Positions 576-31,183 of a DNA stretch of 64,000 bases are shown piece after piece. The DNA is taken from NCBI GenBank assembly GCA_963796275.1, contig CAWCKY010000004.1, positions 832,001 to 896,000 on the forward strand, in the 5' to 3' direction. The DNA is from an uncultured Acidobacteriota bacterium (GTDB lineage Bacteria; Acidobacteriota; Blastocatellia; RBC074). The position numbers and the translations under genes were made by a program. Below the pieces are notes generated by a model. It made no database searches. It had not been told where the DNA came from and saw only the letters and a program-made list of their open reading frames with translations. How positions within the stretch are numbered: the first letter of the stretch is position 1; every line of letters begins with the position of its first letter.

Positions 576-763
576 TATGCGCACCGATCCTTTCGAGAGT
601 AGAGGTTTATAGCTCGTAACGACGTGTAAGTGGCAATAGATATCGAAAGGTTTCAGTCATCACCAAAACAACCGCAAAAAAAAAACACGAAGGGGAACGC
701 AAAAAAAGCCACAAATCTATCGTTTTGCGGCTTTTGTGTCCCCCTTTTTATGATGATTTCGGT

Positions 764-1742: not shown

Positions 1743-2735
1743 TTATTCGATGATCGGGATTATCAAGGCACAACTCTCTTCTTCAAAAACCCGCTTCAAT
1801 CTTCCGAACATCTCTTTATCCCTATAAGTTCCAATGATCGAGCCGCCCGAGCCGGCGAATTTGGCGGAAGCGCCAATCTCGCGTGCCAATTCAACCATCC
1901 TGATGTGTTTGGAATTGAGATTATAGATGCTTCGGCGCGTATCGAAATTCTTATTGATTAAACCCGCAAGTGCCTGGTAATCGCTTAAACAATCGCGCGC
2001 CTGTCGGGCCAGATCGGCTATCGTACTCATCGCATCGATCACCTTCGTTTCACCGCTATCATAGCGTTTGCGGATGTCATTGTGAAAGACCTCAGACGGC
2101 TCAGCCAGCTCGGTTTGATAGGCAATGTACAGGGGCGGCAAGATTCCGGGGTCGAGCGGTTCGTATATCCCGTGACCGTGCTGGCACATGTATTCGCTAT
2201 CGAAATCCATATAGACCAGCCCCTCATAAACCTGCGCGACGCGATCCTGCAAGCCGGCGCTGATTCCCAACTCGTCTTTTTCAACCGAAAGGATGAGGGC
2301 CGGTAGTATCTCTTTCGGTATCTCCACATCATAAAACCGGCAGAGAGCGCGCATCGTCGCAGTCACTATCGCGCTGGATCCGGCAAGTCCGACCTGCCGC
2401 GGAATGTTCGACGAGTAGCGCAATGAGAAACTGCCGGCCTTAAGCTCGATCTGCTTTCCCAGGCAGTACTCGGCAAATCGTTTGATCGCGGCTTTGACCA
2501 GTCGCAACCCTCCATAGTAACCGTTCAACCTGGTGTCGTGCAAAAAATCTTCTATGCTGTTGAATCGGCAGTGATCCTGCCGGGTCGGAATGATCTCCAG
2601 TTCGGGCCATTCATATATGACCACCTCGGCCGAGAAGTTTTTGACGATCAGACTGATGGTCTTACCGTGATAGCCGTCGGACGGATTGCCTATCAAGCCT
2701 GCCCGCGCATAGGCTCTGGTTTTAAAGATTCTCAC
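1743..2735 (-). CDS. GHMP-family sugar kinase, glucuronokinase-like
   Basis: [17 protein letters not shown]-terminus (plant glucuronokinase-type), [15 protein letters not shown]-binding motif, [20 protein letters not shown]. Overlaps the galU stop. Confidence 0.8.
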
Positions 2736-3609
2736 CTATTAACTCCTTGACGTGTTTGCGCAATCGTTCACCATAGACGGGATCGGTGAGCGCAAATTCG
2801 ATGAAGGTTTCAAAGTAGCTATCGAAATTGCCGATGTCGTAGCGTTTCTCGGTCGCGGGCAGCCGGACGCCGACGATTCGCTTGCCTTCCCCCAGCATGA
2901 GGCGGATCGCATCGGTCAATTGTATTTCGCCGCGATGATCAAAACCCGTGCGTTTGATCGCTCCGAAAAGGTCGGGCGCAAAAACGTACCGTCCTGCGAT
3001 CGCCCAATTGCTCGGCGCTTCATCGCGCCGGGGCTTCTCGACCAGATCGGTGATCCCGAACACTTCACCGCCGTCCGATTCTTTGACTATCCCGTACATC
3101 GAAACTTCGCGGGCCGGCACTTCTTCGACTGCAATGGCGCAAGCGGCCTCGTGCGCCTGGAATGCGTCGATCAACCTCTTGACGATAAGCGAAGGCTGAT
3201 GGCGGCCGATGATCGAGTCGCCCAGCGCAACGACGAACGGTTCCGTTCCGGTAAAGTTTTCCGCGCAGAGCACGGCATCGCCGAGTCCTCGCTGCCGCCG
3301 CTGGCGCGTGTAAAGAAAATGGAGACCCATACGCTCATACTCGAGCTCCTCTAGCAGGTCCTCTTTTCCGGTCTCGCGTAGCGTGCGGATCAGATCGGGA
3401 TCATCGTCGAAATGGTCTTCAATCGAGCTCTTCCCCCGCCCGGTGACGAAGAGGACACGCTTCATCCCGCACAGATGCAACTCTTCTACGATGTACTGGA
3501 CGATCGGCTTCTTCCCCACTGGAAGCATCTCTTTGGGCTGTGATTTGGTGGCCGGAAGCAATCGCGTGCCCAGACCGGCGACTGGGATGACGGCATTGTA
3601 AATATTCAT
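2722..3609 (-). CDS. galU: UTP--sugar-1-phosphate uridylyltransferase (GalU family)
   Basis: [49 protein letters not shown]. Confidence 0.92.
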
Positions 3610-3690
3610 AGGAATTCGCAGTTAAATATGTTAACAATTCAGCGACTCAGCCCGAGTTACATGAAAACGGGCCGCGAACCGATGCGAAAC

Positions 3691-3734
3691 GGGGGCGTAA
3701 GCGACCTGTGCCCTGGCACAGTCGGTTACACCCC
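3691..3734. repeat. Long imperfect hairpin (REP-like) in the divergent intergenic region
   Basis: GGGGCGTAAGCGACCTGTGCC-CT-GGCACAGTCGGTTACACCCC. Confidence 0.5.
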
Positions 3735-3884
3735 AACGCTGCTCTACTTATATGACTTAAGGGCCTAATTCAACTGTATCAATTCATTGAAAGCCAATGG
3801 TAATATAAGGCACGCCCCGCGGCGAGTGCCAAGAAATTGAAAGATATTAACGCTAGATTTAAGCCCTGGAGAAGACCATCCGTG

Positions 3885-5216
3885 ATGACCTCACATGCAA
3901 TAAAGAGTTATCACACACTGCTGACGAAGTCTCTGGCAGAGGATGCGGCTGAGAAGCTGATTGAGGGAACGAAGAGTCACAACCTGTTGTTTGAGGAACA
4001 GCCAGTCTGCAACGTTTTGCGGCCGGTCCTTATCACGGCCGAACAGTACGATTACATCAAGCGCGAATCCACGTTAGTGCTATCGGCGATCAGGAAGCTG
4101 GGAAAGGCGATGATGGCCGATGCCAGGCTACGCTCGATGCTGGACCTCTCTCCAATGGAGGAGCAGATCATAGCATTCGAGCCGGGTTATGGCGCGCCGG
4201 ACGCCACCGGCAGGCTCGATGCCCTCTTCGACACGCGCGGCGAATTCAACCTCGTTCGATACAACGCGGACTGCCTCGCCGGGCTGCCCTACGCCGATGT
4301 CTTATGCGAGTTATTTGTGAAGATGAAGGTCGTGCGGGAATTTTCGCGCAAGTTTCATATACGCGGCATCGAGATCAGGCCTCGGATACTTGAGATCCTG
4401 GCCAGATGCTATCGCCAGTCGAACCCCTTGCACCTGCGCGAACACATGCGCATCGCCATCGTCGACTGGAAAGATAACCTGGCGAGCCCCGAACTCGAGT
4501 TATGGCGGGAATACTTTGAATCGCACGGCTATCCGACAATCATCGCCGATCCCGACGAACTGGAGTATCGCGGAGGTTGGTTGCGCGCTGGAGATTTCGA
4601 AATCAACATCGTCTACAAACGAGTGATCACCCGCGAATTGCTGGCGCGCTGCGGAATGAATCATCCGCTCGTGCGTGCGGCGTGTGAACGTGCGGTCTGC
4701 GTCGTCAACTCGTTCCGATCGACCATGCTCGCGAAGAAAGCGATCTTCGCGTTACTCGACGATCCGGCTTATGACGACCTCTTCTCGGTCGACGAGGTCG
4801 GCGCTATCTGCCGCCACATCCCATGGACTCGCCTCCTGCGCGAGGGCATAACGACCTACCGCGGGCGTAGCATAGACCTATTGGATTTCGTCTCGACCCA
4901 TCAAAACATTCTGGCGCTGAAACCCAACGGAGACTATGGCGGTCAGGGAGAGACGATAGGATGGGAGTGCAGCAGCGAAGAGTGGGCGCGCGCAATCAAA
5001 TACTCGCTTTCAGATTCATATGTGGTTCAGGAGCGTATAGATGTTTTAAAACAATCATTCCCCGTGCTGCGGGATGGGGAGCTTAAATATGAAGACCTCA
5101 GCGTAGATTTCGATCCGTATACGTGGTGCGGCGAGGGAGTTGAAGGCGCCGGCATCAGGCTTTCGGCATTTTCAGGCCGCGGCGGATGGACAGCTCCGAT
5201 GCTCATTATTGAGTGA
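3885..5216 (+). CDS. Circularly permuted (type 2) ATP-grasp / glutathionylspermidine-synthase-like protein, possibly catalytically degenerate
   Basis: RLDAL, IAIVDW, IVYKRV, VVNSFRS, LKPNGDYGG, YVVQE. Start chosen at GTG 3882/ATG 3885 after GGAGA; the ORF is open from 3837. Confidence 0.8.
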   Translation: MTSHAIKSYHTLLTKSLAEDAAEKLIEGTKSHNLLFEEQPVCNVLRPVLITAEQYDYIKRESTLVLSAIRKLGKAMMADARLRSMLDLSPMEEQIIAFEPGYGAPDATGRLDALFDTRGEFNLVRYNADCLAGLPYADVLCELFVKMKVVREFSRKFHIRGIEIRPRILEILARCYRQSNPLHLREHMRIAIVDWKDNLASPELELWREYFESHGYPTIIADPDELEYRGGWLRAGDFEINIVYKRVITRELLARCGMNHPLVRAACERAVCVVNSFRSTMLAKKAIFALLDDPAYDDLFSVDEVGAICRHIPWTRLLREGITTYRGRSIDLLDFVSTHQNILALKPNGDYGGQGETIGWECSSEEWARAIKYSLSDSYVVQERIDVLKQSFPVLRDGELKYEDLSVDFDPYTWCGEGVEGAGIRLSAFSGRGGWTAPMLIIE

Positions 5217-5328
5217 AACAACCCGGGGACAAAATTTGGCCAAAAGAACGGTGATCGAAGCTAGCCCGGTCTCGAAAGCCTCGTCATTACTTAATACTCT
5301 TACGATTTGCTATCCGCGTTTGAGATCG

Positions 5329-6011
5329 TTTGGAGTTCCGCGTTTACGCGGTCTTTTTCTTTCGCATGATTCCAGACCGCCTGAAGGCGGTACTCCGAAC
5401 TATCGCTTGGAGTTCCGCGTTTACGCGGTCTTTTCTTTCGCATGATTCCAGACCGCCTGAAGGCGGTACTCCGAACTATCGTTTGGAGTTCCGCGTTTAC
5501 GCGGTCTTTTTTCTTTCGCATGATTCCAGACCGCCTGAAGGCGGTACTCCGAACTATCGTTTGGAGTTCCGCGTTTACGCGGTCTTTTTTCTTTCGCATG
5601 ATTCCAGATCGCCTGAAGGCGGTACTCCGAACTATCGCTTGGAGTTCCGCGTTTACGCGGTCTTTTTTCTTTCGCATGATTCCAGACCGCCTGAAGGCGG
5701 TACTCCGAACTATCGCTTGGAGTTCCGCGTTTACGCGGTCTTTTCTTTCGCATGATTCCAGACCGCCTGAAGGCGGAACTCCGAACTATCGTTTGGAGTT
5801 CCGCGTTTACGCGGTCTTTTTCTTTCGCATGATTCCAGACCGCCTGAAGGCGGAACTCCGAACTATCGTTTGGAGTTCCGCGTTTACGCGGTCTTTTTTC
5901 TTTCGCATGATTCCAGACCGCCTGAAGGCGGAACTCCGAACTATCGCGCTTGGAGTTCCGCGTTTACGCGGGCTTTTACTTTTCGATCGATTTTCTAACC
6001 GCCTGAAGGCG
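5329..6011. repeat. Tandem array of REP doublets (REPIN/BIME-like): 8 full copies and 1 degenerate copy of a 76-80 bp unit
   Basis: TGGAGTTCCG starts at 5331, 5408, 5484, 5562, 5640, 5718, 5794, 5871 and 5951. Each unit carries two inverted GGAG-foot hairpins, GGAGTTCCGCGTTTACGCGG and CCGCCTGAAGGCGG(T/A)ACTCC. The array lies between convergent genes. Confidence 0.92.
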
Positions 6012-6138
6012 CCTGTAAGGCAGCGGTAATGACGAGCCTGAAAGCCACATGCCTAAACTGCCGATATCCCGCTATCGCGGATGGCATGCGATATTTTATG
6101 CTGTCTGTCTTTTGTGAATTATGAGGTGACTTTCCGGT

Positions 6139-7494
<1,356 letters not shown>

Positions 7495-7654
7495 TTATAT
7501 GCGTCTTATATGCGTCTCACGTGGCCTCTGGTTCTTGATTATTCTATCTCATCGTGGAATACGAAAACTACCATTTACTATTGTCTGGGCTTAACCGTCA
7601 ACATAATTTTTAATAAGATCAGTCGTCAACCGAAGAAAAGGAGTCAAAAAATAT

Positions 7655-8521
7655 ATGATTTGTGTCAAATGCGGAACCAACCTGTCTGACGATGCTCGCT
7701 TTTGCAGCGTCTGCGGTTCAAATCTGGGCGCGACATCAGGAGGCAGGGCTGGCTTTCAAGGCGCGGGCGGTATCCAGATCGACAGCGACGGGCGCGGCGC
7801 CGGCCGCGGTTATAAATACGAGATTCTCCACCCTGGAGCATTCGCTCTGGCGCTCATCCAACTACAGCCGGAACAATCCATTCAGGCGGAAGCAGGCGCG
7901 ATGGTTTCGATGTCGGGAAATGTCGAATTGCAGTCGCAGATGAAAGGCGGGTTGATGGGCGCGCTCAAACGCGCGGTCGGCGGCGAATCGGCTTTCGTCT
8001 CCACCTTCACCGCGCATGGCGGGCCCGGCGAAGTGAGTTTCGCGCCCGGCGCGCCCGGAGATGTAGCGGCGATTGAGATGAATAATCAGATTTTTTACGT
8101 GCAATCGAGCTCGTACCTCGCGGGCGATATGAGCCTCCATATCGATACGCGATGGGGTGGAGCGAGATCGTTCTTCGGCGGCGAAGGACTGTTCGTCCTG
8201 CAGGTGCAGGGGTCCGGGCTCCTGCTCGTCTCGTCTTTCGGATCGATCCATCGCAAAAAACTCAATCACGGCGAACGGTATGTAGTCGATACCGGCCATC
8301 TGGTCGCGTGGGAAGGGCATATGCAATATGACCTGCGCAAAGCGTCGACCGCCGGTTGGTTCCGCAGTATGGTGAGCGGCGAAGGAATCGTGGCCGAATT
8401 TACGGGACCGGGTGAGATACTCATCCAGACGCGCAACCTGGCGGCATTCGCAGGGATACTCAAACCGTTCTTCCCATCACAATCGGGCGGCGCCGGGCTG
8501 GGAACACTATTTGGTGAGTAA
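7655..8521 (+). CDS. AIM24/TIGR00266-family protein with N-terminal Zn ribbon
   Basis: CVKCG...FCSVCG, then AEAGAMVSM, GGESAF, FFGGEGLF, VVDTGHLVAW, SGEG...FTGPG...QTRN. Confidence 0.88.
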   Translation: MICVKCGTNLSDDARFCSVCGSNLGATSGGRAGFQGAGGIQIDSDGRGAGRGYKYEILHPGAFALALIQLQPEQSIQAEAGAMVSMSGNVELQSQMKGGLMGALKRAVGGESAFVSTFTAHGGPGEVSFAPGAPGDVAAIEMNNQIFYVQSSSYLAGDMSLHIDTRWGGARSFFGGEGLFVLQVQGSGLLLVSSFGSIHRKKLNHGERYVVDTGHLVAWEGHMQYDLRKASTAGWFRSMVSGEGIVAEFTGPGEILIQTRNLAAFAGILKPFFPSQSGGAGLGTLFGE

Positions 8522-8598
8522 GCTATTCGATGAGGGAATATTGCGGATTTGCGACCATACAAAGGCATGATGGTGACAAATCCGCATTCCGTATTCAC

Positions 8599-9363
8599 TT
8601 ACCTTCTTCGTGTATTTAGTAAAAACTGAAGCAGGAAGCTGAAGAAGTTGGCAAATGAAATATAGATGCTGGCGGTATGCTGCACCGCTGCTTCCCAGGA
8701 ATTCTCGGCTTGTGATAGGCGGAAAAACTTGAGCAGGAAGAAGCCCGCGAAGACGACCATGCCGATGATCGAGTAGAGCAGATTAACCGTACGCGAGAAT
8801 CGGACGAAGATTCCAACCAACCCCACCACGATCAAGCCGATCAATGCGATGAGCAGGATGGGCATCAAAAAGCTGAAATCGAATCCCGTCACAAACACAA
8901 AAATCCCGCAGCCGAGCATCACCGCCGTGGTCCCGGTCAGAGCCTGGATGACGATGCCGGCCCCCTCTTCTCTCGCCGCGAACCCAACTAACGGTCCCAG
9001 CATCATCCCGATAACGAATCCCAAGCCCATCAGCAGAGTAGTGGCGATCAGGCCTCCACCTGCCAACGGAATAATGAATATTCCGATCATCGCCAAAATA
9101 AAAAGACCGATGGCAGCGAGCCATCCCTCGAGCCGACGTCCGACATAGGCGCCCACACCGCCCGTCGCGATCGTAAGGCTGAGCAGACACAGAACCTTCG
9201 CCATAAGCGGCGTGCTTTCAACCGGCAATGCGCGAAATCCCAGCAACATGAGAAGCAATCCCGCAAAGACAGCAATCACCAGACCTTTGATCGAATCGAG
9301 GTCCGCTTTTAATTGATCGGCAATAAATATCGAACGCCTACGAACGTATCTCTCTGTTTGCAT
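8599..9363 (-). CDS. Bax inhibitor-1/YccA-like membrane protein
   Basis: About 7-8 hydrophobic segments, GMMLGPL, IVIQALTGT, C-terminal AA...IYISFANFFSFLLQFL. Confidence 0.7.
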   Translation of the reverse strand: MQTERYVRRRSIFIADQLKADLDSIKGLVIAVFAGLLLMLLGFRALPVESTPLMAKVLCLLSLTIATGGVGAYVGRRLEGWLAAIGLFILAMIGIFIIPLAGGGLIATTLLMGLGFVIGMMLGPLVGFAAREEGAGIVIQALTGTTAVMLGCGIFVFVTGFDFSFLMPILLIALIGLIVVGLVGIFVRFSRTVNLLYSIIGMVVFAGFFLLKFFRLSQAENSWEAAVQHTASIYISFANFFSFLLQFLLNTRRR

Positions 9364-9428
9364 GCTTTTTTGTCCTCCAATCTGTAAATCAGATAGGCAA
9401 CTTATAGAAGGTAATTAAGCAAGAATCA

Positions 9429-10052
9429 TCAATCAATGAATCTGCGATCATCCAGCATCGCATTTGCCAGCAATCCCAGATATTCATTATGCGTCAGATC
9501 GATGGCACCGAAATATCCGATGTGAGTGGTTCTCTGCTGCGCATCAAGCAGATAATATCCGTGGTCTCGCAGCCTTTCGACCAAAGCGACGAGCGCTATT
9601 TGAGAAGCCGAAGTAACCCGGCTGAACATCGACTCGCCGAAGAAAGCCGATTTCATAGCGACGCCGTACAATCCGCCGACCAGGTCATCATCCTTCCAGA
9701 CCTCGACCGAATGGGCGTAATTACGGCGATGAAGTTCGAGATAGAGCGATATCATCTCATCGCTCAACCAGACCTCATCCGAATCGACCTCGCTATGACG
9801 CGCGCACGCGCGGATTACGGCCGGGAAATTAGCATTGAATTTTATCTGATAGTCTTCCTTTCGGATAACTTGCCGCAACGACCGGCGTACGCGGAACCGA
9901 TCGTCGAGTGGTATGATGGTGCGTGGTTCGGCCATAAACCACTCTATCCGCCCATATCGCCCGCGCGCCATTGGGAAGAAGCCTTGCTGATAACCTGCAA
10001 TCACCTGCTCCGGCGTGATGTTCGGTTGTAAGGCTGATTTGCGACTCTTCAT
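9429..10052 (-). CDS. aat: Leucyl/phenylalanyl-tRNA--protein transferase
   Basis: YQQGFFPMA, AHSVEVW, LVGGLYGV, FFGESMFS, LLDAQ. ATG at 10052 preferred over 10157. Confidence 0.93.
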   Translation of the reverse strand: MKSRKSALQPNITPEQVIAGYQQGFFPMARGRYGRIEWFMAEPRTIIPLDDRFRVRRSLRQVIRKEDYQIKFNANFPAVIRACARHSEVDSDEVWLSDEMISLYLELHRRNYAHSVEVWKDDDLVGGLYGVAMKSAFFGESMFSRVTSASQIALVALVERLRDHGYYLLDAQQRTTHIGYFGAIDLTHNEYLGLLANAMLDDRRFID

Positions 10053-10147
10053 GCCCAAAACATTAGCATGACAACGATTTACAAGCAAAGGAAAGGCCTG
10101 CCTCTGCCCCTTCGACTTTATCGGCGCTCGTGCTATCTTTGCCGCCG

Positions 10148-12013
10148 ATGCAACCAATATTTATCCTTATACTAACGCTTCTCCTGACATCGCCCGCGAT
10201 CCCTGCCAAGTCGGCGGCTCTGGCTCAACTGGAATTGAGTTACAGACTCTCCTTTCCCCAGCCGCACACGCATCTCTACGAGGTTACTTTTACCATCGGT
10301 AACGTCGCCGCCCCGCAGATCGATTTACACATGCCAGTATGGACGCCGGGATCATACCTGGTCCGCGAATTCGGGCGAAACGTACAGGACTTCGAAGCCA
10401 GGGATAAGAACGGCCAGCGGTTGAGATGGCAGAAAACCGACAAATCGACCTGGCGGGTCGAAGCGGGCGCAGGCAGCGGCAGCCCGAAAACTATCAGCGT
10501 CAGCTATCGCGTCTATGCGAATGAATTGACGGTCCGGACGAGCCACCTCGATTCATCTCACGCTTACTTCAACGGCGCCAGCCTGTTCATGTATGTCAAA
10601 GATGCGACCGCTCTCCCATTAAACCTCAAGATCGACGCGCCGGAGGGATGGCGCGCGACCACTCCGCTCGGGCTTGAGCCCGGGGCAAACGGGTTTTATT
10701 CCGCCCCGAATTACGACGTCCTCGTCGATTCGCCTACGGAAGTCGGTAAACACCAGGTGCTCGAGTTTACGGCGCGCGGCAAAACGCATCGGATAGCCAT
10801 CTGGGGCGATGCGGCTTATGACCCGGCAAATTTGAAAGAAGATTTCGCGAAGATCGTTGAAGAAGGCGCCCGGATGTTCGGCGGCCTGCCATACGATCAC
10901 TATACTTTCATCATACATATTCAGCCGGACATAGGCGGGGGCCTTGAGCACCTGAACTCTACTACCTGTCAGACGACGCCGCGCACTTTTGCGACGCGCC
11001 GGGGTTATCGGAATTTTCTGGGCCTGATCTCTCACGAGTACTTCCATCTCTGGAATGTGAAGCGCATCCGCCCGCTCGCTCTCGGCCCTTTCGATTACCA
11101 GCGCGAAAACTACACGCGCGCGCTCTGGGTGTCGGAAGGCATAACTGATTATTACAGTGAACAGATGCTGCGCCGCGCAGGGCTGATCAGCTCTTCCGAA
11201 TACCTCGAGGGGCTCGCCAATAACATCCTGTCATTCGAATCGACGCCGGGGCGATTGGAGCAGACAGCTGAGTCGGCGAGCTTCGATTCGTGGATCAAGT
11301 TTTACCGTCCCGATGAGAATTCGATCAATACATCGATGTCTTATTATCTGCGCGGCGATCTTCTCGGCTGGCTGCTCGATTTCGAGATTCGCTCGCGCAC
11401 GGGAGGCGCTAAGAGTCTGGATGATCTCATGCGGCTGCTTTTGGAAAACTATGGTTTACCCAAACCCGGTTTCACCGATGCCGGTTTGAAAGCAGCCTTC
11501 GAAAAGGTCGCCGGAGCTGACCTCACGGACTTTTTCAAGCGGTATGTAAACGGCAATGAAGAGATCGAATTCGATGCTTACCTGAGCAAAGCCGGCCTGC
11601 GGCTCGCTCGCGGTTATCGAGCGGCTGCAGTTGACGCAGATGGAAAAAACGGGAAGCCCGGGACGCTCGGTATTCGCACGCGGACCAACGAAGATCGTGT
11701 GATTGCCGTCAACGTGATCACCGGACTTCCGGCATATGAGGGCGGAATCAATGCGGGCGACGAACTGGTCGCGATCGACGGCAATCGGATCGGCGCAGGC
11801 AACGTCAACGAGCGCTCGAACATTCTGGAAGAATTGCGGGCGGGCCAAAATGTCACGCTCACGGTGTTCCGGCGCGAACGAATGATGAATTTCGAGCTGA
11901 CAGCAGCCGTGAAGCCGTTCGATTATTACAGGATTGTGGAAGTTAAAGAGGCCAACCCGCAGCAGATGGCATTGCGTCAGGCGTGGCTGCGCGACGAGTC
12001 GAAGAAGGAATAA
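10148..12013 (+). CDS. M61 glycyl aminopeptidase-family metallopeptidase with PDZ domain, secreted
   Basis: Signal peptide, MPVWTPGSY, GGLEHLNS, SHEYFHLWNVKR (HExxH), LWVSEG, C-terminal PDZ (GINAGDELVAIDG). Confidence 0.93.
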   Translation: MQPIFILILTLLLTSPAIPAKSAALAQLELSYRLSFPQPHTHLYEVTFTIGNVAAPQIDLHMPVWTPGSYLVREFGRNVQDFEARDKNGQRLRWQKTDKSTWRVEAGAGSGSPKTISVSYRVYANELTVRTSHLDSSHAYFNGASLFMYVKDATALPLNLKIDAPEGWRATTPLGLEPGANGFYSAPNYDVLVDSPTEVGKHQVLEFTARGKTHRIAIWGDAAYDPANLKEDFAKIVEEGARMFGGLPYDHYTFIIHIQPDIGGGLEHLNSTTCQTTPRTFATRRGYRNFLGLISHEYFHLWNVKRIRPLALGPFDYQRENYTRALWVSEGITDYYSEQMLRRAGLISSSEYLEGLANNILSFESTPGRLEQTAESASFDSWIKFYRPDENSINTSMSYYLRGDLLGWLLDFEIRSRTGGAKSLDDLMRLLLENYGLPKPGFTDAGLKAAFEKVAGADLTDFFKRYVNGNEEIEFDAYLSKAGLRLARGYRAAAVDADGKNGKPGTLGIRTRTNEDRVIAVNVITGLPAYEGGINAGDELVAIDGNRIGAGNVNERSNILEELRAGQNVTLTVFRRERMMNFELTAAVKPFDYYRIVEVKEANPQQMALRQAWLRDESKKE

Positions 12014-12020
12014 AAAATAC

Positions 12021-12122
12021 AGTTTTTAGTTTTCAGTTTTCAGTTTTCAGTCTTTTGTTCCCTCAACCCTGTGCAGTCGGGAAACCTGGAATCTGAAAAC
12101 TAGAAACTGAAAACTGAAAACT
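12021..12122. repeat. Inverted blocks of 7-bp tandem repeats, (TTTTCAG)n ... (CTGAAAA)n
   Basis: Directly visible; could form a long hairpin between co-oriented genes. Confidence 0.8.
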
Positions 12123-12126
12123 CCTC

Positions 12127-14865
12127 ATGAATCGAGTCTTCGTTCTCATCATTTGCTTTTGCATTACGTGCTTTTGCATTTGGGCGAGCAGCTACCAGGT
12201 CCGCTCATCGACCGCGCAGGTTCGGGAAATTGCCGAAAACAGAGGCGCCGCATCAGTCTGGCCAGCTTTGCTCCGTCTGCGCACGACCGCGACAGTGCTG
12301 CATACGACCGCACACCCCGACGATGAAGATGGCCCTCTGCTCACGTGGCTTTCACGCAAGTCCGGGATACGCACTGGCCTGCTTACCCTCAATCGCGGCG
12401 AAGGCGGAGCCAATCTGATAGGCCCGGAGCTGTACGACGCGCTTGGCATATTGCGAACCGAGGAGCTGTTGGCCGCCGGAAGATATTACGGCGTCGATCA
12501 GATGTTCACGCGCGCGACCGATTTCGGATTCTCGAAACGGTTGGATGAAACGCTCGAACACTGGGGCAAAGATGCTGTGCTCGGCGACGTCGTGCACGCG
12601 ATCCGGTTATATCGACCAGATATCGTCGTTTCGCGTTTTCATGGCAAATTTCGGGATGGACACGGAAATCATCAGGCTGCCGGGTTGTTGAGCATTGATG
12701 CGTTCAAGGCGGCCGCCGATCCCAAGCTCTTCCCGGAGCACTTCAAAGAAGGCCTCAACCCCTGGCAGGTTAAGAAGCTCTATCTCAGCTTGCGCGAAAA
12801 TGAGGTCAGTAATCTCAATCCGGAGTCCGCATCCAGACCTGGAACGGTTACCAGGTCGAACCCCATATTGAAGATCGATGCCGGCGAATACGACCCGCTG
12901 CTCGGACGTTCATATACGGAGATCGCGCGCGACGGGTTGAGCCATCAGCGGTCCCAAGGCGCGGGTCAAGCGTTCGCGCAGCCGGGTTCATCATTCACCT
13001 CCTTAATCCTGGCCGACAGCGCAATTCCACCGGTCAAGTTTGAAAAGAGCATATTCGATGGGATCGATACGACGATAAACGGATTAGCAAAACTCGCGGG
13101 ATCGATCGATATCTCTTCCGAACTGAGTGAAATCAACAACCGGATCGAAGCGGCCATAACGAAATTTGACGCCCGCCGGCCCGGGATCGTCGCCGCCGAG
13201 CTTGCCGCCGGGATGCGAACGACGCGCGCTTTGATCGAGAAGATCAAACAGATCGATGAAGCGTATAAGGATCATTTACTCTTCTTGCTCAAAAATAAAG
13301 AGCGCGAATTTAACGATGCCATGAACAAAGCGCTGGGATTGTCGCTGGAGGTTCTGGTCAAACCTAAAACTCCACCTGCCGGATCGACGTCTCCTTTCCA
13401 TCCGCGGGAAACATTCAATGTTGCAATTCCAGGACAAAGTTTCGGTATTGACATTTATTTGACCAGCCGTGGACGCCATTTAATAAATCCCAATCGCATC
13501 AAAGTAGAATTGCAAGTTCCAGCAGGTTGGAACTCTTACGTTTATCCACCGATTCCCGCCTTCTGGAGCGATAATGCGCGTTATCAATTCATGGCATCGG
13601 TGAAAATACCGGACGATGCGAAATACACCAGACCCTACTGGTCGCGCGCCGATGAATTGCGCGATCATATTTATCGGATCGACAAACCGGAATATCAGCA
13701 TCTTCCCTTCTCTCCGCCGGAGGTCATCGGCATCTTCAATTACGAGATCGCCGGCGTCAAATTCGAGCTCGCACAGCCTGCGCAGACCGTCTATCTCGAG
13801 CGGCCCTGGGGCGAGCGGCGGCGCCTGTTGACGGTTGCGCCGTCTATCAATGTCGGCATCTCACCGCGCATCGGCATTGTGCCTATCACCGCATCGGCCA
13901 CTTCATTCAACGTCAGCGCGGGCGTTTCCAACAATGTCAACGGCGAGGCAGCCGGTAAGGTACGTTTAAAATTGCCCGAGGGCTGGACATCGACTCCGGC
14001 TGAACACAATTTCAAATTCGCTCACGAAAGTGAAGTCGGCAGCTTCACCTTCAAGGTCATCGCACCACAGGTCAGCGCAGGCATCGAATACGAGGTCCGC
14101 GCCGTCGCCGAATATTCGGGCCGAGAATACGGCGAGGGCTATCAGGTGATCGCACATCCCGACCTGGAACCGCGTCACCTCTATCGCGCCGCCACAATGA
14201 AGGTTCGCGGAATCGATTTCAAAGTTGCGCCGAATCTGGTGGTCGGGTATGTAATGGGCGTTGGCGATGAAATGCCGAAAGCGCTCGAGCAGATGGGAGT
14301 GCGAGTAACCATGCTGGGTGAGAATGATCTGGCCAATGGTCGACTTGATCATTATGACGCGATAATCATCGGCATCCGAGCTACAGCCGTACGTGACGAT
14401 CTGAAGGCATACAGCAAGAATCTGCTCGATTATGCCGAGCGCGGAGGCAACCTCATATATCAATATCAAACGCAGGAGTTCGATGACGCACCTTATGGAC
14501 CTTATCGGTATCAGCTCAGCGCGCGCGCCGAAGAAGTCTCCGAAGAAGATGCGAAGGTGACGATTCTCGATCCCGCGCATCCTTTCTTCAATTTTCCCAA
14601 TAAAATCACGTCTGCCGATTTCGAGGGGTGGCTGGAAGAACGAGGCTCAAAATGGATGACTAGTTGGGATGATCACTATAAGGCCTTGCTTGAAAGCCAC
14701 GATCGCTCGCAACCGCCGCAGCGTGGCGGACTGCTCTATGCGCAATATGGCAAGGGAACGTTTACATATGCGGCTTACGCGTTCTATCGTCAATTGCCCG
14801 CAGGCGTACAGGGCGGGTACCGATTGTTTGCGAACATCATCAGTATGAAGAAACGTCCAATCTAA
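12127..14865 (+). CDS. PIG-L/LmbE-family deacetylase with NEW3-like and C-terminal GATase-like domains, secreted
   Basis: AHPDDE, NRGEGG, RTEELLAA, DFGFSK, GHGNH; C-terminal VGYVMGVGD...YDAIIIGIRA...RQLPAGV. Confidence 0.88.
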   Translation: MNRVFVLIICFCITCFCIWASSYQVRSSTAQVREIAENRGAASVWPALLRLRTTATVLHTTAHPDDEDGPLLTWLSRKSGIRTGLLTLNRGEGGANLIGPELYDALGILRTEELLAAGRYYGVDQMFTRATDFGFSKRLDETLEHWGKDAVLGDVVHAIRLYRPDIVVSRFHGKFRDGHGNHQAAGLLSIDAFKAAADPKLFPEHFKEGLNPWQVKKLYLSLRENEVSNLNPESASRPGTVTRSNPILKIDAGEYDPLLGRSYTEIARDGLSHQRSQGAGQAFAQPGSSFTSLILADSAIPPVKFEKSIFDGIDTTINGLAKLAGSIDISSELSEINNRIEAAITKFDARRPGIVAAELAAGMRTTRALIEKIKQIDEAYKDHLLFLLKNKEREFNDAMNKALGLSLEVLVKPKTPPAGSTSPFHPRETFNVAIPGQSFGIDIYLTSRGRHLINPNRIKVELQVPAGWNSYVYPPIPAFWSDNARYQFMASVKIPDDAKYTRPYWSRADELRDHIYRIDKPEYQHLPFSPPEVIGIFNYEIAGVKFELAQPAQTVYLERPWGERRRLLTVAPSINVGISPRIGIVPITASATSFNVSAGVSNNVNGEAAGKVRLKLPEGWTSTPAEHNFKFAHESEVGSFTFKVIAPQVSAGIEYEVRAVAEYSGREYGEGYQVIAHPDLEPRHLYRAATMKVRGIDFKVAPNLVVGYVMGVGDEMPKALEQMGVRVTMLGENDLANGRLDHYDAIIIGIRATAVRDDLKAYSKNLLDYAERGGNLIYQYQTQEFDDAPYGPYRYQLSARAEEVSEEDAKVTILDPAHPFFNFPNKITSADFEGWLEERGSKWMTSWDDHYKALLESHDRSQPPQRGGLLYAQYGKGTFTYAAYAFYRQLPAGVQGGYRLFANIISMKKRPI

Positions 14866-15082
14866 TTCGGGCTGACAAACAAGTTCTGCCCCCTACGTAG
14901 TTCCATTCGCCCAATTAAAGTGCAAACGAAAAATGTCGAAACGGACGGAAAGCTTATGATTTTTTCGTTTATTTCGTTTATTTTGTAGCCCTCGTTTCCC
15001 CCTTGCTTTGGCAATAATCTTCCACCGTTAAATGCGGGGCTACCGGGCGCCAAATTTGCGGTTAATTCTCTAAAGATAAACA

Positions 15083-17320
15083 ATGGCTTCACCAGTCACA
15101 CGCGTAGAGATCGTACAAAATAAAATCGACGACTATCTGGCAACTGCAAGGCCAGCCGGCTCTCAGCTTGCTCTGAGCGATAAGCTCAGCCCTGAAACCG
15201 ATCTGACAGTGCGGCAGGCTCTCGAGATATACGAGGATCAGGTGACGAGCCGCCTGCTCGACGTCGCGGCGCGCGAACTCAAAAAGCGCAATGAAGGCTT
15301 CTACACCATCTCCAGCGCAGGACACGAGAACAACGCGATCATCGGGACGATGTTGCGGTTGGATGATACGTGTTTCCTCCATTACCGTTCCGGCGCCTTG
15401 ATGCTGGCGCGCGGGCGTAAGCTGCCGGGGACGAATATGCTCTTCGATACCCTGGTCTCGTTCTGCGCTTCCGCCGACGACCCCATCGCACAGGGCCGCC
15501 ACAAAGTCTGGGGAAGCTATCCGCTGCGTGTTCTCCCGCAGACCAGCACTATCGCTTCGCATCTGCCCAAGGCCGCCGGTTTCGCATTTGCAGTGCGACA
15601 AGCGCGCCGCATCGGGCGCATGAGCGATCTGGGCGACGACTCCATCGTTTGCTGCTCTTTCGGCGATGCTTCGGCCAATCACGCTACGGCGCTCTCCGGC
15701 ATCAACGCTGCGCGATATACGGTGCGGCGAGGCGGACCGGCGCCCATTCTTTTCCTGTGCGAGGACAACGGCATAGGAATTTCGGTTGAAACACCGCGGG
15801 ACTGGATCCGCGATTCATTCGACAATCTGCCGCACCTCAAATATTTCGAAGCTGATGGAACGATCGATGAAATCTGGGACGTCGCCGAGGAAGCGATAAA
15901 AACGTGCCGCGTCTCACGCGCCCCGGTCTTTCTCCATCTGCACGTCACGCGCTTATGGGGACACGCCGGCACCGATGTCGAAACAACCTATCACACGATC
16001 GAAGAGATTGCAGCCGCCGAAGCCGAGGACCCGCTCATGCTGAATGCTCAGCGGTTGATTGAGACGGGCGCCGCCACCCCGGCCGGTCTGCGATCGATGA
16101 TCGACAGCGTTCGAGCCCGGATCGATTCGTTGATGGAAGAAGCCGTCAGCAGGCCAAAGCTCAAAACGGTCGAACAGGTGATCGCTCCCCTGGCGCCTTA
16201 TGATGAGGAAGCGATTCGCTCTTCTACCCAAATCGCGGCCGACCGCAAGGCACGCGAAAAACTATTTGATAACGCGCTTCCTGAGAATGCGTTCGCGCCG
16301 ACGAAACGGACGATGGCCGCGCACATCAACTCGGCGCTCGCTGACGAGATGCTGCGTTTTCCTGAGATCATCGTCTTCGGAGAGGACGTCGGCAAAAAGG
16401 GCGGCGTGTATTATGTGACTCAAGGCCTGCAGAAGAGATTCGGCGTGGCGCGGGTCTTCGATACGCTGCTCGATGAAACTACCATTCTGGGAGTAGCCCA
16501 GGGCGCGTCGATCGCCGGTTTGTTGCCCATCCCCGAGATCCAATACCTCGCCTATCTTCACAATGCGCTCGATCAGATTCGGGGCGAGGCGTGCTCGCTA
16601 TCGTTCTTCTCCGCCGGCCAATTCACCAATCCGATGGTGGTGCGCATCGCGGGGCTGGCTTATCAAAAAGGCTTCGGGGGCCATTTCCATAACGATAATT
16701 CGATCGGAGCGCTGCGGGATATACCGGGATTGATGATCTGCACTCCGGCGCGCGGAGACGACTCGGCGATGCTTTTGCGCGGTTGTATAGCAGCGGCACG
16801 GGCTTGCGGACGGGTGGCCTGCTTTCTGGAACCGATTGCGCTATACCACGAGAAGGATCTCTATGAAGACGGCGACAACAAATGGCTCTTCGATTATCCG
16901 GCTCCGGGAGAGATGTTGCTGCCCGGCGAAACCGGCCTATATCATCCCGACGCCAAAGATATATTGATTGTGAGCTATGCCAACGGGCTGCGCCTTTCGT
17001 TGCGCGCGGCCCGCAGGCTTAAAGAAAAATTCGGCGTCGCTGCGCGGGTCATCGATCTGCGATGGTTGAACCCTCTACCGTTTGAAGTAGTAAAAATGCA
17101 CGCCGAAGAATGCGATAGAGTGCTCGTCGTCGATGAATGCCGCGCAACCGGAGGCGGCATAGCCGATGCAATACTTGCGTCGCTGGCGGAAGAAGGGTTT
17201 AAAGGGACGATGCGATCAGTACGCGCGGTCGATTCGTATGTCCCTCTGGGGGCGGCAGCGAACCTGGTGTTGATTTCCGAGGAGCAGATTCTTGAGGCGG
17301 CTCGGGTTATTTGTAGTTAA
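15083..17320 (+). CDS. Fused E1 alpha/beta ThDP-dependent 2-oxoacid (likely branched-chain) dehydrogenase
   Basis: FYTISSAGHE, FLHYRS, FGDAS...DNGIGIS, GEDVGKKGGV, RVFDTLLDE, EIQY, GGHFH, DLRWLNPL. Confidence 0.9.
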   Translation: MASPVTRVEIVQNKIDDYLATARPAGSQLALSDKLSPETDLTVRQALEIYEDQVTSRLLDVAARELKKRNEGFYTISSAGHENNAIIGTMLRLDDTCFLHYRSGALMLARGRKLPGTNMLFDTLVSFCASADDPIAQGRHKVWGSYPLRVLPQTSTIASHLPKAAGFAFAVRQARRIGRMSDLGDDSIVCCSFGDASANHATALSGINAARYTVRRGGPAPILFLCEDNGIGISVETPRDWIRDSFDNLPHLKYFEADGTIDEIWDVAEEAIKTCRVSRAPVFLHLHVTRLWGHAGTDVETTYHTIEEIAAAEAEDPLMLNAQRLIETGAATPAGLRSMIDSVRARIDSLMEEAVSRPKLKTVEQVIAPLAPYDEEAIRSSTQIAADRKAREKLFDNALPENAFAPTKRTMAAHINSALADEMLRFPEIIVFGEDVGKKGGVYYVTQGLQKRFGVARVFDTLLDETTILGVAQGASIAGLLPIPEIQYLAYLHNALDQIRGEACSLSFFSAGQFTNPMVVRIAGLAYQKGFGGHFHNDNSIGALRDIPGLMICTPARGDDSAMLLRGCIAAARACGRVACFLEPIALYHEKDLYEDGDNKWLFDYPAPGEMLLPGETGLYHPDAKDILIVSYANGLRLSLRAARRLKEKFGVAARVIDLRWLNPLPFEVVKMHAEECDRVLVVDECRATGGGIADAILASLAEEGFKGTMRSVRAVDSYVPLGAAANLVLISEEQILEAARVICS

Positions 17321-17432
17321 ACTCAACGAGGCGCAAAGACTACCGAAAAAATGTTTAAGACAGAAGACAACATACTATTTCTCTCTGCGACTTAAGTTTC
17401 TGTCACTTTTTAATGGAATTCACACGATTGAA

Positions 17433-18293
17433 ATGAACCAAACATGTCTCATCACGGGCGCAAATTCAGGGATCGGCAAAGTTACCGCACGCGCGCTGGC
17501 CGCCAGCGGCGCGACCGTTATTATGGTTTGCCGGGATCGGACTAAAGGCGAGGTGGCTCGCGCCGAGATCCGCGGGGTAACAAACAACGACCGGGTCGAG
17601 CTGCTAATCGCCGATCTGTCCGAACAGCGCCAGATCAGGCGACTCGCGGCAGAGGTGAAAGAACGATTTGCAGAACTGCATATACTGATCAACAACGCCG
17701 GAATATGGAACGACAAACGCGAGGTCACTGTCGATGGATTCGAGACCACCTGGGCGTTGAACCATCTCGCGTACTTCCTGCTCACTGAAGAATTGATCGA
17801 TTTGCTTAAGTCCTCAGCTCCCGCGCGCATCATCAATCTCTCATCCGATTACCACAAGTTGGGGCATATAGATTTCAATGACACACAGCTCAGTCGAGGA
17901 TACAGCGGAGGGAGAGCATACGGCCAGTCGAAATTGGCCAATGTGATATTCACCTATGAGCTCGCACGAAGACTGAGAGGCACGGGAGTTACGGCCAACT
18001 GCCTGCATCCGGGAGCGGTGAACACCAATTTCTTCAACAATATCGGGGGCCTATTCGGAATACTGACCTGGATCGGAAAACCATTTTTGCGCACTCCGGC
18101 AAAGGGAGCGGAGACGGTCATCTGGCTGGCCTCATCTCCTGAAGTAGAGCATGTCAGCGGCAAGTATTTCTTTGATCGCAGAGAGAGGCGATCCAGCCCG
18201 GAGTCATATGACCAGAAGGTTGCTCAAAGCTTATGGGAAGTCAGCGAGAGAATGACGAATGGATCGTTCATTTCTTCGAGTACCGCGCCCTGA
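17433..18293 (+). CDS. Short-chain dehydrogenase/reductase (retinol dehydrogenase-like)
   Basis: ITGANSGIG, LINNAG, YGQSK (YxxxK), HPGAVNT. ATG at 17433. Confidence 0.92.
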   Translation: MNQTCLITGANSGIGKVTARALAASGATVIMVCRDRTKGEVARAEIRGVTNNDRVELLIADLSEQRQIRRLAAEVKERFAELHILINNAGIWNDKREVTVDGFETTWALNHLAYFLLTEELIDLLKSSAPARIINLSSDYHKLGHIDFNDTQLSRGYSGGRAYGQSKLANVIFTYELARRLRGTGVTANCLHPGAVNTNFFNNIGGLFGILTWIGKPFLRTPAKGAETVIWLASSPEVEHVSGKYFFDRRERRSSPESYDQKVAQSLWEVSERMTNGSFISSSTAP

Positions 18294-18383
18294 TACAATG
18301 AATACCATTGTGAGTGTAATCGCTTCCGCGCAGTTGCAAAGTGTCATGGCTAACTGCCCCACCAGGGTGCGGAGGGAGGCCGT

Positions 18384-19376
18384 ATGAAAAACAAAGTCAT
18401 CGGGATTGTCATCACGATGTCGATTGCGGCATTGCTCCCGATATTCCGTGGAGTATCGGAGCAAATCGAAACCCAATCTGCGCAACAAAAAAAGCAAAAA
18501 TACGACTCAGCGACTGCTATCGGCGCAGAATTTCCCGCTTCAGTGCAAGATCCTCAGAAACCACAGGATCGAATCTTGATCAAGACAAACCTGGTCAACC
18601 TGACGGTAACCGTGAGCGACCGGCTCGGGAGGTTTGTGACCGGACTTTCGCCAGAGAATTTTGAAGTTTATGATGACAACATCAAGCAACAGATCGCTTT
18701 TTTCGCCAACGAGGATTCACCGGTGTCGATGGGAATCGTCTATGATGTCTCCGGCTCGATGAAGGATTTCAGCGCTCATTCGCTGCGAATGCTCAGACAA
18801 TTTTTCGAGAACTCACATAAAGAAGACGAATTCTTTGTCATCGCATTCAACAACCGCACACATCTCGTTCATGACTTTTCATCCTTGCCCGACGAGATCA
18901 TCAACCGTGTGGGCTTTATCAAGTCCGACGGCAGCACTGCCCTCATTGACGCGACGTATCTTGCGACCGAAAAGGTACGCCAGGGGCGACACCACAAGAA
19001 AGTCCTCCTGATTTTTTCCGACGGAGAGGAAAATAGCAGCCGGTATTCAGGAAGGGAGCTGAAAAATCTGCTCAACGAGACCGATGTCCAAATCTATGCC
19101 ATTGGAATGAGCGAGTGGAGCAGCGGCGCCCCCACGTTGAAATTCCTCTCTGAACCGACCGGCGGGCAAGCGTTCTTTCCTCTCGATTACGTATCGGCGG
19201 ATTTCGTCTACACCAGACTCGCATTGATGCTGAGAAATCAGTACGTCATCGGCTTCTATCCGAACAATACGGCATATGACGAGAAGTGGCACAAACTGCG
19301 CGTCTTGCTCAATGCGCACAAACAACTTGGTAAACTGAAGATATTCTACAAAAATGGCTACTGGTCCAAAAAATAA
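18384..19376 (+). CDS. VWA-domain protein (acidobacterial VWFA type)
   Basis: Signal peptide, LVNLTVTVSD...GLSPENFEVYDD, MIDAS motif DVSGS, TALIDA, SDGEEN, TGG, QYVIGFYP. Confidence 0.88.
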   Translation: MKNKVIGIVITMSIAALLPIFRGVSEQIETQSAQQKKQKYDSATAIGAEFPASVQDPQKPQDRILIKTNLVNLTVTVSDRLGRFVTGLSPENFEVYDDNIKQQIAFFANEDSPVSMGIVYDVSGSMKDFSAHSLRMLRQFFENSHKEDEFFVIAFNNRTHLVHDFSSLPDEIINRVGFIKSDGSTALIDATYLATEKVRQGRHHKKVLLIFSDGEENSSRYSGRELKNLLNETDVQIYAIGMSEWSSGAPTLKFLSEPTGGQAFFPLDYVSADFVYTRLALMLRNQYVIGFYPNNTAYDEKWHKLRVLLNAHKQLGKLKIFYKNGYWSKK

Positions 19377-19447
19377 AAGCAGGTCGGGTAATTCATCGGG
19401 CGGAGAAGGTTAAAATTTCCGCCCGATCAGGAGAGGAGTAATACACT

Positions 19448-20290
19448 ATGTCCAACCCTATATTCACCGAAGGCCCCGCAGATAAAGGAGCGGATTCGAC
19501 TTTTCTCGCATCTATAAAAAATGCCGAGAGCTATCGCGACTACACGGCCGAAGCTCGCAGTTGCGTGAAAGAGCTATACCGGCTCAACCATGCAAACCAG
19601 ACGCTCGATTTCGTCCTCAAGAAGAAAGCCGAGTACGGTAAGTTCAATAAAGCGGAGATGGGTATCTGGGAGGCGATGGAGTATTTGAATACGCTGGTCG
19701 ACGACAGCGATCCCGATATCGATTTGAGTCAGGTCGATCACGCGCTGCAAACCGCCGAGGCCATACGTCAGGATGGCCATCCGCGCTGGTTCATACTGAC
19801 CGGCTTGATCCACGACCTGGGAAAGGTGCTTTGCCTCTTTGGCGAACAGCAATGGTCGGTGGTGGGCGATACATTTCCGGTCGGCTGCGCCTACAGCGAT
19901 CGCATCGTTTATTCGGAGTTGTTCAAGGCCAACCCCGATTATCTAAACCCCGCCTTTCAAACTCCGCAGGGGATTTACGAAGCTGGCTGCGGGCTCGACC
20001 ATGTGCATCTTTCCTGGGGCCACGACGAGTACCTCTATTCGGTCGTGCAGAATTACTTACCGCAGGAAGCGTTGTGGATGATCCGTTATCACTCGTGTTA
20101 CCCGGTCCATCGCGAAGGCGCATACGCGCACCTGCTCAATGAAAAGGATCGGGAGATGCTGAAATGGGTTCGGGCATTCAATCCTTATGACTTGTATTCC
20201 AAATGCGATGTGAAACCGGACCTGAGTGAGTTGAAACCATACTATGAAGAATTGATCGGAGAATTTTTTCCACCCAGGATCGCGTGGTGA
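19448..20290 (+). CDS. miox: myo-Inositol oxygenase
   Basis: [56 protein letters not shown] (di-iron ligand motifs). Confidence 0.92.
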
Positions 20291-21395: not shown

Positions 21396-21405
21396 AAATA
21401 CTAGA

Positions 21406-21486
21406 GCATTGTTCATTGTTAATTTTACATTTTACATTTGTCATTGAGGAAATGGGGTTCAACCAATGACAAATGAACAATGAACT
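21406..21486. repeat. Inverted blocks of ~7-bp repeats (CATTGTT/CATTTTA ... AATGAAC/AATGACA)
   Basis: Directly visible between the exonuclease and ligase genes. Confidence 0.65.
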
Positions 21487-21503
21487 GGGCCACCCGATAA
21501 ATC

Positions 21504-31061: not shown

Positions 31062-31095
31062 AATAGGCAAATTTTTCTCTCTTTTGCGTCCTTAT
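31062..31095 (+). promoter_or_regulatory. Candidate ECF-sigma promoter or operator, copy 2
   Basis: AATAGGCAAATTTTTCTCTCTTTTGCGTCCTTAT, about 90 bp upstream of the probable CHAT-gene ATG (31184). Confidence 0.65.
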
Positions 31096-31183
31096 GTCTA
31101 TACAGGGATTTTTTTGGGACCGACTCAATTTTTCAAGACGAGAAACTGAGGGTATTGAGGCATTACCAATACGGGAAGAACGC

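Follow-up and report, generated by a model that had tools for sequence, protein, structure and literature searches.

Gene organization of the locus

The stretch of DNA analysed here (the window) comprises 64,000 nucleotides from an uncultured Acidobacteriota bacterium (assembly GCA_963796275.1, contig CAWCKY010000004.1, positions 832,001 to 896,000) and is part of contig 4 of a genome of 9.46 Mb in 7 contigs. Its central element is a pair of genes on the minus strand. A GalU-like sugar-1-phosphate uridylyltransferase of 295 aa (2722..3609), which belongs to the kinase-linked clade called type A below, precedes a GHMP kinase of the glucuronokinase family (1743..2735, 330 aa). The kinase is a predicted D-glucuronate (GlcA) 1-kinase and the GalU-like protein a predicted GlcA 1-phosphate (GlcA-1-P) uridylyltransferase, i.e. 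a UDP-glucuronate (UDP-GlcA) pyrophosphorylase. A myo-inositol oxygenase (MIOX) homologue of 280 aa is encoded on the plus strand (19448..20290), outside this conserved module. A first-pass annotation of the window had joined the three genes into a plant-like route from myo-inositol to UDP-GlcA. All three lie where it had placed them, and the 14-bp overlap of the GalU-like gene with the kinase gene (2722-2735) is real. The distance to MIOX given there as about 16 kb was also correct (15.8 kb from start to start), as was its caveat that MIOX stands outside the kinase operon, on the opposite strand and with unrelated genes between.

The kinase gene starts with GTG, and an AAGGAG ribosome-binding site lies about 7 nt upstream, within the end of the GalU-like gene. 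A gene for a 322-aa protein of no known family (764..1732, minus strand) begins 10 bp past the kinase stop codon and has its own AAGGA ribosome-binding site. It is followed on the 3' side by a terminator-like hairpin with a T run (704..735, minus strand; 12-pair stem), which is a pattern match only, from a consensus scan. The short gaps, the ribosome-binding sites and the hairpin after the 322-aa gene indicate that the three genes are probably transcribed together, with the 322-aa gene, in this lineage, probably in third place. Homologues of the 322-aa protein (44-60% identity) are encoded directly downstream of the kinase in three other loci (L031, L035, L038). The protein has no Pfam or NCBIfam match, and its N-terminus carries the pattern CxxC...CxxC. 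A promoter scan returned 6 sites against 4.3 +/- 1.7 in shuffled sequence, which is not above the shuffles.

The kinase belongs to the glucuronokinase family

The kinase (PF00288, 55.4 bits) is 45% identical over residues 7-327 (292 bits) to the kinase domain of the Danio GKUP protein (P0216), which is labelled 'glucuronokinase with putative uridyl pyrophosphorylase'. A plant protein with the UniRef name glucuronokinase gave 46-47% identity over the full length of the kinase with each of its two halves. The plant and fish enzymes are only 50-53% identical to one another, so that the bacterial kinase is almost as near to each of them. Both have been reported to be specific for GlcA (PMC2823444, PMC3938481). 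The eleven-residue segment at kinase residues 10-20 fits the motif ARxGLxGNPSD and aligns with ARVGLMGNPSD in the fish and ARIGLLGNPSD in the plant enzyme, in keeping with the glucuronokinase-type N-terminus seen in the first pass. An alignment of 22 diverse family members has 27 invariant columns, among them R11, G16, N17, P18 and D20 of this segment.

Two other identities, heptose-7-phosphate kinase (HddA) and GalK, were rejected. The kinase scored 51.1 bits with the HddA model NF049969 (cut-off 600) and 25.9 bits with the GalK model NF003006 (cut-off 443), far under both NCBIfam cut-offs. Together with the identities to the fish and plant enzymes this bears out the first-pass assignment to the glucuronokinase type, and we place the kinase in the glucuronokinase family (EC 2.7.1.43) by sequence. 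Among solved structures the closest in sequence is that of an HddA-like kinase (49.6 bits); a solved structure was found for no member of the glucuronokinase family. From this family membership, the enzyme probably phosphorylates D-glucuronate at C1 at the expense of ATP.

Bacterial homologues of the kinase are not new. They were noted in 2009 by Pieslinger et al., who mention related sequences in 'a few bacteria' and name Solibacter usitatus, Dyadobacter and Verrucomicrobium among them (PMC2823444). The family now comprises 569 clusters at 50% identity (E<=1e-30), and at least 587 related stretches were confirmed in species-representative bacterial genomes. Among the matches listed are Acidobacteriota, Planctomycetota, Verrucomicrobiota, Chloroflexota, Kiritimatiellia, Hydrogenedentota, Nitrospirota and Bacteroidota. 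Close homologues, whose source names are Blastocatellia and Acidobacteriota, carry the name 'glucuronokinase' at JGI and GHMP or mevalonate kinase at NCBI.

The kinase is paired with a GalU-like protein

The GalU-like protein matched PF00483 with 111.5 bits. With TIGR01099 it scored 282.4 bits, under the equivalog cut-off of 326.8. Its best solved relative is B. subtilis YngB (7B1R, 222 bits), solved GalU proteins overall scoring 197-222 bits.

Linkage was examined in a phylum sample of 301 Acidobacteriota genomes (kinase matches at E<=1e-40) and in the best 80 kinase loci from other genomes, which served as a survey of other phyla. The kinase was present in 21 of the 301 genomes, 16 of them with a protein at least 49% identical to that of the window, and in 15 of these 16 loci a GalU-like gene is directly adjacent. 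The five weaker acidobacterial homologues (34-40% identity), none of which has an adjacent GalU-like gene, were not counted as orthologues. In the survey the GalU-like open reading frame (ORF) was the sole conserved neighbour of the kinase (62/80 loci). It lies directly upstream in 38 loci (type A, the arrangement of the window) and directly downstream in 22 (type B); the type A proteins are 55-88% and the type B proteins 40-45% identical to that of the window. A conserved transporter, glucuronidase or glycosyltransferase was found beside the pair in none of the 80 loci, the remaining neighbours being unrelated housekeeping genes. The pairing of the kinase with the GalU-like gene is far beyond chance.

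The phyletic pattern of the GalU-like protein follows that of the kinase. Matches at least 57% identical to it were confined to 14 of the 301 genomes, each of which carries the kinase. Every other GalU match in the sample, which comprises about 140 other genomes with a match, was at most 48% identical (the GalU tally takes in the unpublished genomes G049 and G152). In addition, the two proteins are fused in several organisms. Examples of such fusions are P0127, P0128, P0143 and a 624-aa ORF in the acidobacterial genome G159; 6 of 180 long kinase-domain proteins, in three clusters, have a GalU-like N-terminal half, and that of P0128 is 42% identical to the GalU-like protein of the window.

Of the 77 sequences in a FastTree phylogeny, 34 were of type A, 22 of type B and 20 unlinked acidobacterial GalUs; the second GalU-family paralogue of the genome served as the outgroup. 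Five upstream GalU-like ORFs outside 250-340 aa were excluded. Type A (n=34) was monophyletic with a support of 0.998 on a long stem (0.755), and type B (n=22) was monophyletic with a support of 0.999.

In eight of the 22 type B loci (L053, L078, L083, L093, L097, L099, L103, L104) a gene for a short-chain dehydrogenase/reductase (SDR) follows directly (e.g. L083:11935-12909), giving the order kinase, GalU-like, SDR. The SDR matched structures of the B. cereus UDP-glucuronic acid 4-epimerase with 219 bits; entry 6ZLD is identified as this enzyme in PMC11519531. The gene order suggests that in Planctomycetota and relatives the pair may be part of a three-gene route on to UDP-galacturonate.

This SDR leads to the question of which sugar enters the pair. 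Since it resembles an epimerase that connects UDP-GlcA and UDP-galacturonate, either uronate could be the one that is phosphorylated, and the pair might salvage galacturonate or some other hexose or pentose into a different UDP-sugar. Bacterial pairs of broad specificity do exist, such as the GalK and uridyltransferase of Solitalea reported for xylose (PMC11267548), and neither a solved structure nor specificity residues were found for glucuronokinase. Yet the plant and fish enzymes, which are about as far apart from each other as from the kinase of the window, share their reported specificity for GlcA, and the family is well conserved, as its 27 invariant columns show. We therefore hold salvage of another sugar to be quite improbable.

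The sugar pocket is altered in both kinase-linked clades

The type A and type B proteins were compared residue by residue with 18 unlinked GalUs, the long-branch sequences L143 and L156, which are probably wrong ORFs, having been dropped. Only two alignment positions, 132 and 205, are changed in both kinase-linked clades. Position 132 is Asp in 17 of the 18 unlinked proteins, Ser in all 34 of type A, and Thr (19), Cys (2) or Ser (1) in type B. Position 205 is Ile, Val or Leu in 18/18 unlinked proteins and Ala in 34/34 of type A and 19/22 of type B. In the fused proteins, residue 132 is Cys or Ser and residue 205 Ala or Ser. The catalytic core is kept: the AGLGTRLLP loop, the Mg-binding Asp131, and Glu191-Lys192 of the VEKP motif, which correspond to Glu191 and Lys192 of YngB.

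Asp131 and Ser132 align with Asp133 and Asp134 of YngB, and Ile204 and Ala205 with its Val204 and Met205. In the YngB structure Asp133 is described as binding Mg2+, and Asp134, Gly172, Glu191 and Val204 as contacting the glucose moiety (PMC7961091). The equivalent Asp131 of the Pseudomonas UDP-glucose pyrophosphorylase (UGP) is reported to help hold glucose, the Ala mutant being almost inactive (PMC11796359). The two linked clades have independently replaced the glucose-contacting Asp with Ser, Thr or Cys, as read from the alignment. With it an acidic side chain has gone from the sugar pocket, and for this reason the loss fits a substrate with a carboxylate at C6. The altered pocket suggests that the substrate of the GalU-like protein may be GlcA-1-P.

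These results also bear on the simplest explanation of the gene, namely that it encodes the housekeeping UDP-glucose pyrophosphorylase and that its position beside the kinase reflects no shared pathway. No other protein of the genome scores as high with TIGR01099, both the Mg-binding Asp131 and the VEKP lysine are retained, and 12 of 14 acidobacterial type A genomes have no second GalU match at E<=1e-60. However, type A is confined to kinase-bearing genomes (14 of 14) and is never the GalU of the approximately 140 other genomes with a match. Nor does this explanation account for the fusions to the kinase in several organisms or for the convergent change of two positions in the sugar pocket, and the genome has a second GalU-family paralogue, in which the GDD motif is kept. 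It thus appears very improbable. The first-pass proposal that this GalU homologue accepts GlcA-1-P finds comparative support: given the adjacency, the fusions, the co-occurrence and the altered pocket, the protein is probably a dedicated partner of the kinase with GlcA-1-P as its substrate.

MIOX is linked to the kinase in one lineage only

The MIOX homologue matched PF05153 with 377.6 bits (cut-off 25) and mouse MIOX (2huo) with 270 bits (E 2e-79, residues 24-280). The His and Asp residues of the motifs HAxQTAE, HDLGK, WGHDEY, HSxYPxH and DLYxK, which presumably hold the di-iron ligands of MIOX, are identical in the two proteins; the full motif set noted in the first pass was confirmed in this comparison. 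The gene is single copy in the genome. Between it and the pair lie genes for enolase, an AIM24-family protein, Bax1-I, leucyl/phenylalanyl-tRNA-protein transferase (aat), an M61 peptidase, a PIG-L protein, a fused E1 dehydrogenase, an SDR and a VWA protein.

In plants, MIOX makes the glucuronate on which the kinase acts. A dedicated pathway of this kind, in which MIOX forms glucuronate from possibly self-made myo-inositol and feeds it to the kinase and the GalU-like protein, is an alternative to an independent role of MIOX. All three genes are intact, and the genome contains a match to the inositol-1-phosphate synthase domain (PF01658, 114 bits). MIOX was found in 9 of the 11 closest relatives, whose kinases are 68-83% identical to that of the window, and 11 of the 13 genomes of the Blastocatellia-like lineage carry both genes (G000, which is the genome of the window, G016 and G303-G311). 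Where the distance is visible, in G000, G016 and G307, MIOX lies 6.6-24 kb from the operon, in G307 at 6.6 kb from the GalU-like gene; of seven related metagenome-assembled genomes checked for a shared contig (G303, G304, G305, G308, G309, G310, G311), four (G304, G305, G308, G311) have the two genes on contigs of different length and hence on different contigs.

Outside this lineage the association disappears. Of the 301 genomes, 25 carry MIOX (a tally that, like those for the GalU-like protein and UxaC, takes in the unpublished genome G049) and 21 the kinase, but only two of one family (G000, G016) carry both, against 1.7 expected. When 50 of the 80 kinase-bearing genomes of the other-phyla survey were searched for MIOX, it was present in 4 of the 39 that are not close relatives, which is near the 8% background, and it lies within 10 kb of the kinase in one of the 80 loci. 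In the window the genes are on opposite strands with unrelated housekeeping genes between them. The block from E1 to the kinase in G016 is syntenic with the window; the proximity in G016 is not independent of that in G000, because it is one inherited block. Conserved immediate neighbours of MIOX were not found within the lineage. The proximity of MIOX to the kinase-GalU pair is not established as being beyond chance, and a check of co-occurrence as proposed in the first pass came out positive inside one Blastocatellia-like lineage and negative across the 301 genomes and the 39 others.

In G016, MIOX is followed about 300 bp downstream, on the same strand, by a gene for a family 4 glycoside hydrolase (L113:6305-7684, minus); the window has no equivalent.

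MIOX tracks a glucuronate isomerase-like gene, uxaC, instead. UxaC is present in 46 of the 301 genomes and in 21 of the 25 with MIOX, where 3.8 would be expected; these belong to eight families. In the MIOX genomes UxaC is mostly a divergent form (240-300 bits with PF02614), and of the 30 genomes with this form 19 also carry MIOX. The genome studied here has a UxaC-like gene (C4:1470994-1472343; L164:8980-10404) directly after a Gfo/Idh/MocA oxidoreductase, about 620 kb from MIOX on the same contig. Genes that recur in 21 MIOX neighbourhoods (20 loci and the window) are those for sugar transporters (7 neighbourhoods), LacI regulators (6), PfkB kinases (4) and DcuC carriers (4). Among the 16 acidobacterial kinase genomes, 9 have UxaC.

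Judging from these associations, the main role of MIOX is probably inositol breakdown, and divergent UxaC together with MIOX may constitute an undescribed catabolic set leading from inositol to glucuronate in Acidobacteriota. The claim that MIOX feeds the kinase as a pathway is not supported by these counts, and we consider a dedicated plant-like pathway doubtful.

Other routes to UDP-glucuronate in the genome

Three nucleotide-sugar dehydrogenases are encoded in the genome. A TuaD/Ugd-like one (504 bits) lies ahead of a UXS/ArnA-like SDR, and another adjoins a PEP-CTERM glycosyltransferase. A search for ugd, which the first pass had called for, has thus yielded candidates for UDP-glucose dehydrogenase, and since they are present the kinase route would be an addition to the canonical route, as in plants. 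The search for a second galU yielded one GalU-family paralogue (C1:755254-756015), 32% identical to the protein of the window and with the GDD motif kept. PF01704, the UDP-sugar pyrophosphorylase (USP) type, had no match in this genome nor in the control genomes.

UDP-GlcA serves as donor in the formation of many bacterial capsules, exopolysaccharides and lipid A modifications, and exopolysaccharide had been suggested as the purpose of the pair. This finds no local support: glycosyltransferase or polysaccharide-export genes were not found in the 64-kb window.

Further features of the window

Divergent from the pair and upstream of the GalU-like gene, a 459-aa protein of no known family is encoded on the plus strand (3837-5216). 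It is kept at the same place in 9 related loci (54-68% identity), and its homologues have a weak, below-cut-off match to circularly permuted ATP-grasp type 2. It is followed by a 78-bp tandem repeat (5325-6011; 8.8 copies, 95% matches) without an Rfam match; no Rfam family reached the threshold in positions 1-24000 of the window. The repeat unit contains two GC-rich hairpins, one with a T run after it, and gave nine terminator-like matches on the plus strand. ORFs called across the repeat (e.g. 5442-6029) are probably artefacts.

Nearer to MIOX, a 745-aa protein (15083-18293) fuses E1 alpha-like and beta-like dehydrogenase parts of the transketolase type. Its gene overlaps the next SDR gene by 29 bp, and the protein is 77% identical in G016. 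Directly after MIOX (20397-23114) lie genes for a ligase-associated DNA damage response exonuclease (TIGR04122, 487 bits) and an ATP-dependent DNA ligase (NF006701, 736 bits), an ordinary known pair. A protein with the Peptidase_M91 'effector protein' domain (26077-26907, minus strand; 87 bits) and a 1230-aa TPR-CHAT protein (31094-34786, plus strand) are unrelated to the kinase-GalU pair.

Proposed pathway

The interpretation we favour, and regard as fairly probable, is a two-gene salvage of glucuronate to UDP-GlcA beside a MIOX that is mainly catabolic. The kinase would phosphorylate free D-glucuronate at C1 to GlcA-1-P, and the GalU-like protein would join GlcA-1-P and UTP to UDP-GlcA, with no need for NAD+ and independently of UDP-glucose dehydrogenase. 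In the Blastocatellia-like lineage some of the glucuronate made by MIOX might also reach the kinase. Such a flow is plausible because the glucuronate is released into the same cytoplasm, but it would be incidental and would not amount to a dedicated plant-like pathway. We infer the two enzyme activities; what the sequences show directly is the families to which the proteins belong, the conservation of their linkage and the change in the sugar pocket.

Several points weigh against this interpretation. The 45% identity to the fish enzyme leaves the sugar specificity of the kinase unfixed, and our full-text search of open PMC and bioRxiv found no paper assaying a bacterial glucuronokinase or a GalU-type GlcA-1-P uridylyltransferase. 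In 18 of the 80 loci a GalU-like gene is not adjacent to the kinase, although at least 4 of these end at a contig edge beside it. The unlinked GalUs used for comparison number 18, all acidobacterial, and the phylogeny is a quick one made with FastTree. The UGP of Klebsiella is reported to have Val at the position of the glucose-contacting Asp and yet to be a good UDP-glucose enzyme (PMC11796359); the loss of this Asp is therefore suggestive of a uronate substrate, not diagnostic. Moreover, with 282 bits to TIGR01099 in the GalU-like protein and 191 bits in the sole other full-length paralogue, the former might also, or only, make UDP-glucose. Finally, the joint presence of MIOX and the kinase in nearly all genomes of the Blastocatellia-like lineage, and their closeness in the three genomes where it is visible, speak against a purely catabolic MIOX.

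A more far-reaching version would be that the kinase-linked GalU-like proteins are true UDP-GlcA pyrophosphorylases which have arisen at least twice through the same two pocket changes, that they provide an NAD-independent route in many phyla, and that this route is fed here by INO1 and MIOX, making it the complete bacterial counterpart of the plant pathway. As a whole, this version seems unlikely to us.

Significance

To our knowledge, textbooks give a single bacterial route to UDP-GlcA, via UDP-glucose dehydrogenase. If the proposed salvage by a kinase and a GalU-type enzyme is correct, it would be a second, NAD-free and widespread one. Our picture of the recycling of uronate-rich polymers from plants and microbes in soil and water would change, and the pair would offer a compact two-enzyme tool for the synthesis of UDP-GlcA. 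The two-residue signature is a simple, testable specificity rule for GalU-type enzymes. The result for MIOX also warns against inferring a plant-like pathway for genes simply because they lie in one 64-kb window. New in this work are the test of the MIOX link, the association of MIOX with UxaC and the convergent two-residue change of the pocket.

Comparison with known systems

The plant route consists of MIOX, glucuronokinase (Arabidopsis At3g01640, EC 2.7.1.43) and UDP-sugar pyrophosphorylase (PMC2823444). The system described here shares with it the kinase family, including the GNPSD N-terminus, the MIOX homologue in the genome, and the proposed chemistry from GlcA through GlcA-1-P to UDP-GlcA. 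It differs in that the pyrophosphorylase is of the short bacterial GalU type and not of the eukaryotic UDPGP/USP type. In addition, the genes for the kinase and the GalU-like protein are operonic and translationally coupled, whereas MIOX is uncoupled from the kinase outside one lineage.

Zebrafish GKUP is described as a glucuronokinase fused to a putative UDP-GlcA pyrophosphorylase, the activity of which reportedly could not be shown (PMC3938481). Like the bacterial fusions, it combines a nucleotidyltransferase and a kinase of this family in one polypeptide. However, the N-terminal domain of the animal protein is of another nucleotidyltransferase lineage; the GalU-like protein of the window did not match it (E 0.06), and it was ruled out as a relative. 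Since the nucleotidyltransferases belong to different lineages, the animal and bacterial fusions arose independently.

With bacterial GalU enzymes (YngB, 7B1R; P. aeruginosa UGP, 8F73; Klebsiella UGP) the GalU-like protein has the fold, the nucleotide motif, the Mg-binding Asp and the lysine of VEKP in common. Unlike them, it falls below the TIGR01099 cut-off, forms with other kinase-linked proteins a clade of its own, and has Ser in place of the glucose-contacting Asp and Ala in place of the neighbouring Ile.

For MIOX, the closest parallel is an operon of Francisella that is reported to join inositol oxygenase to uxaC, uxuAB and kdgKA (PMC3479022). In both cases a bacterial MIOX homologue is associated with glucuronate catabolism of the uxaC type. 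In contrast to Francisella, MIOX and the UxaC-like gene share no operon here but lie far apart on the contig.

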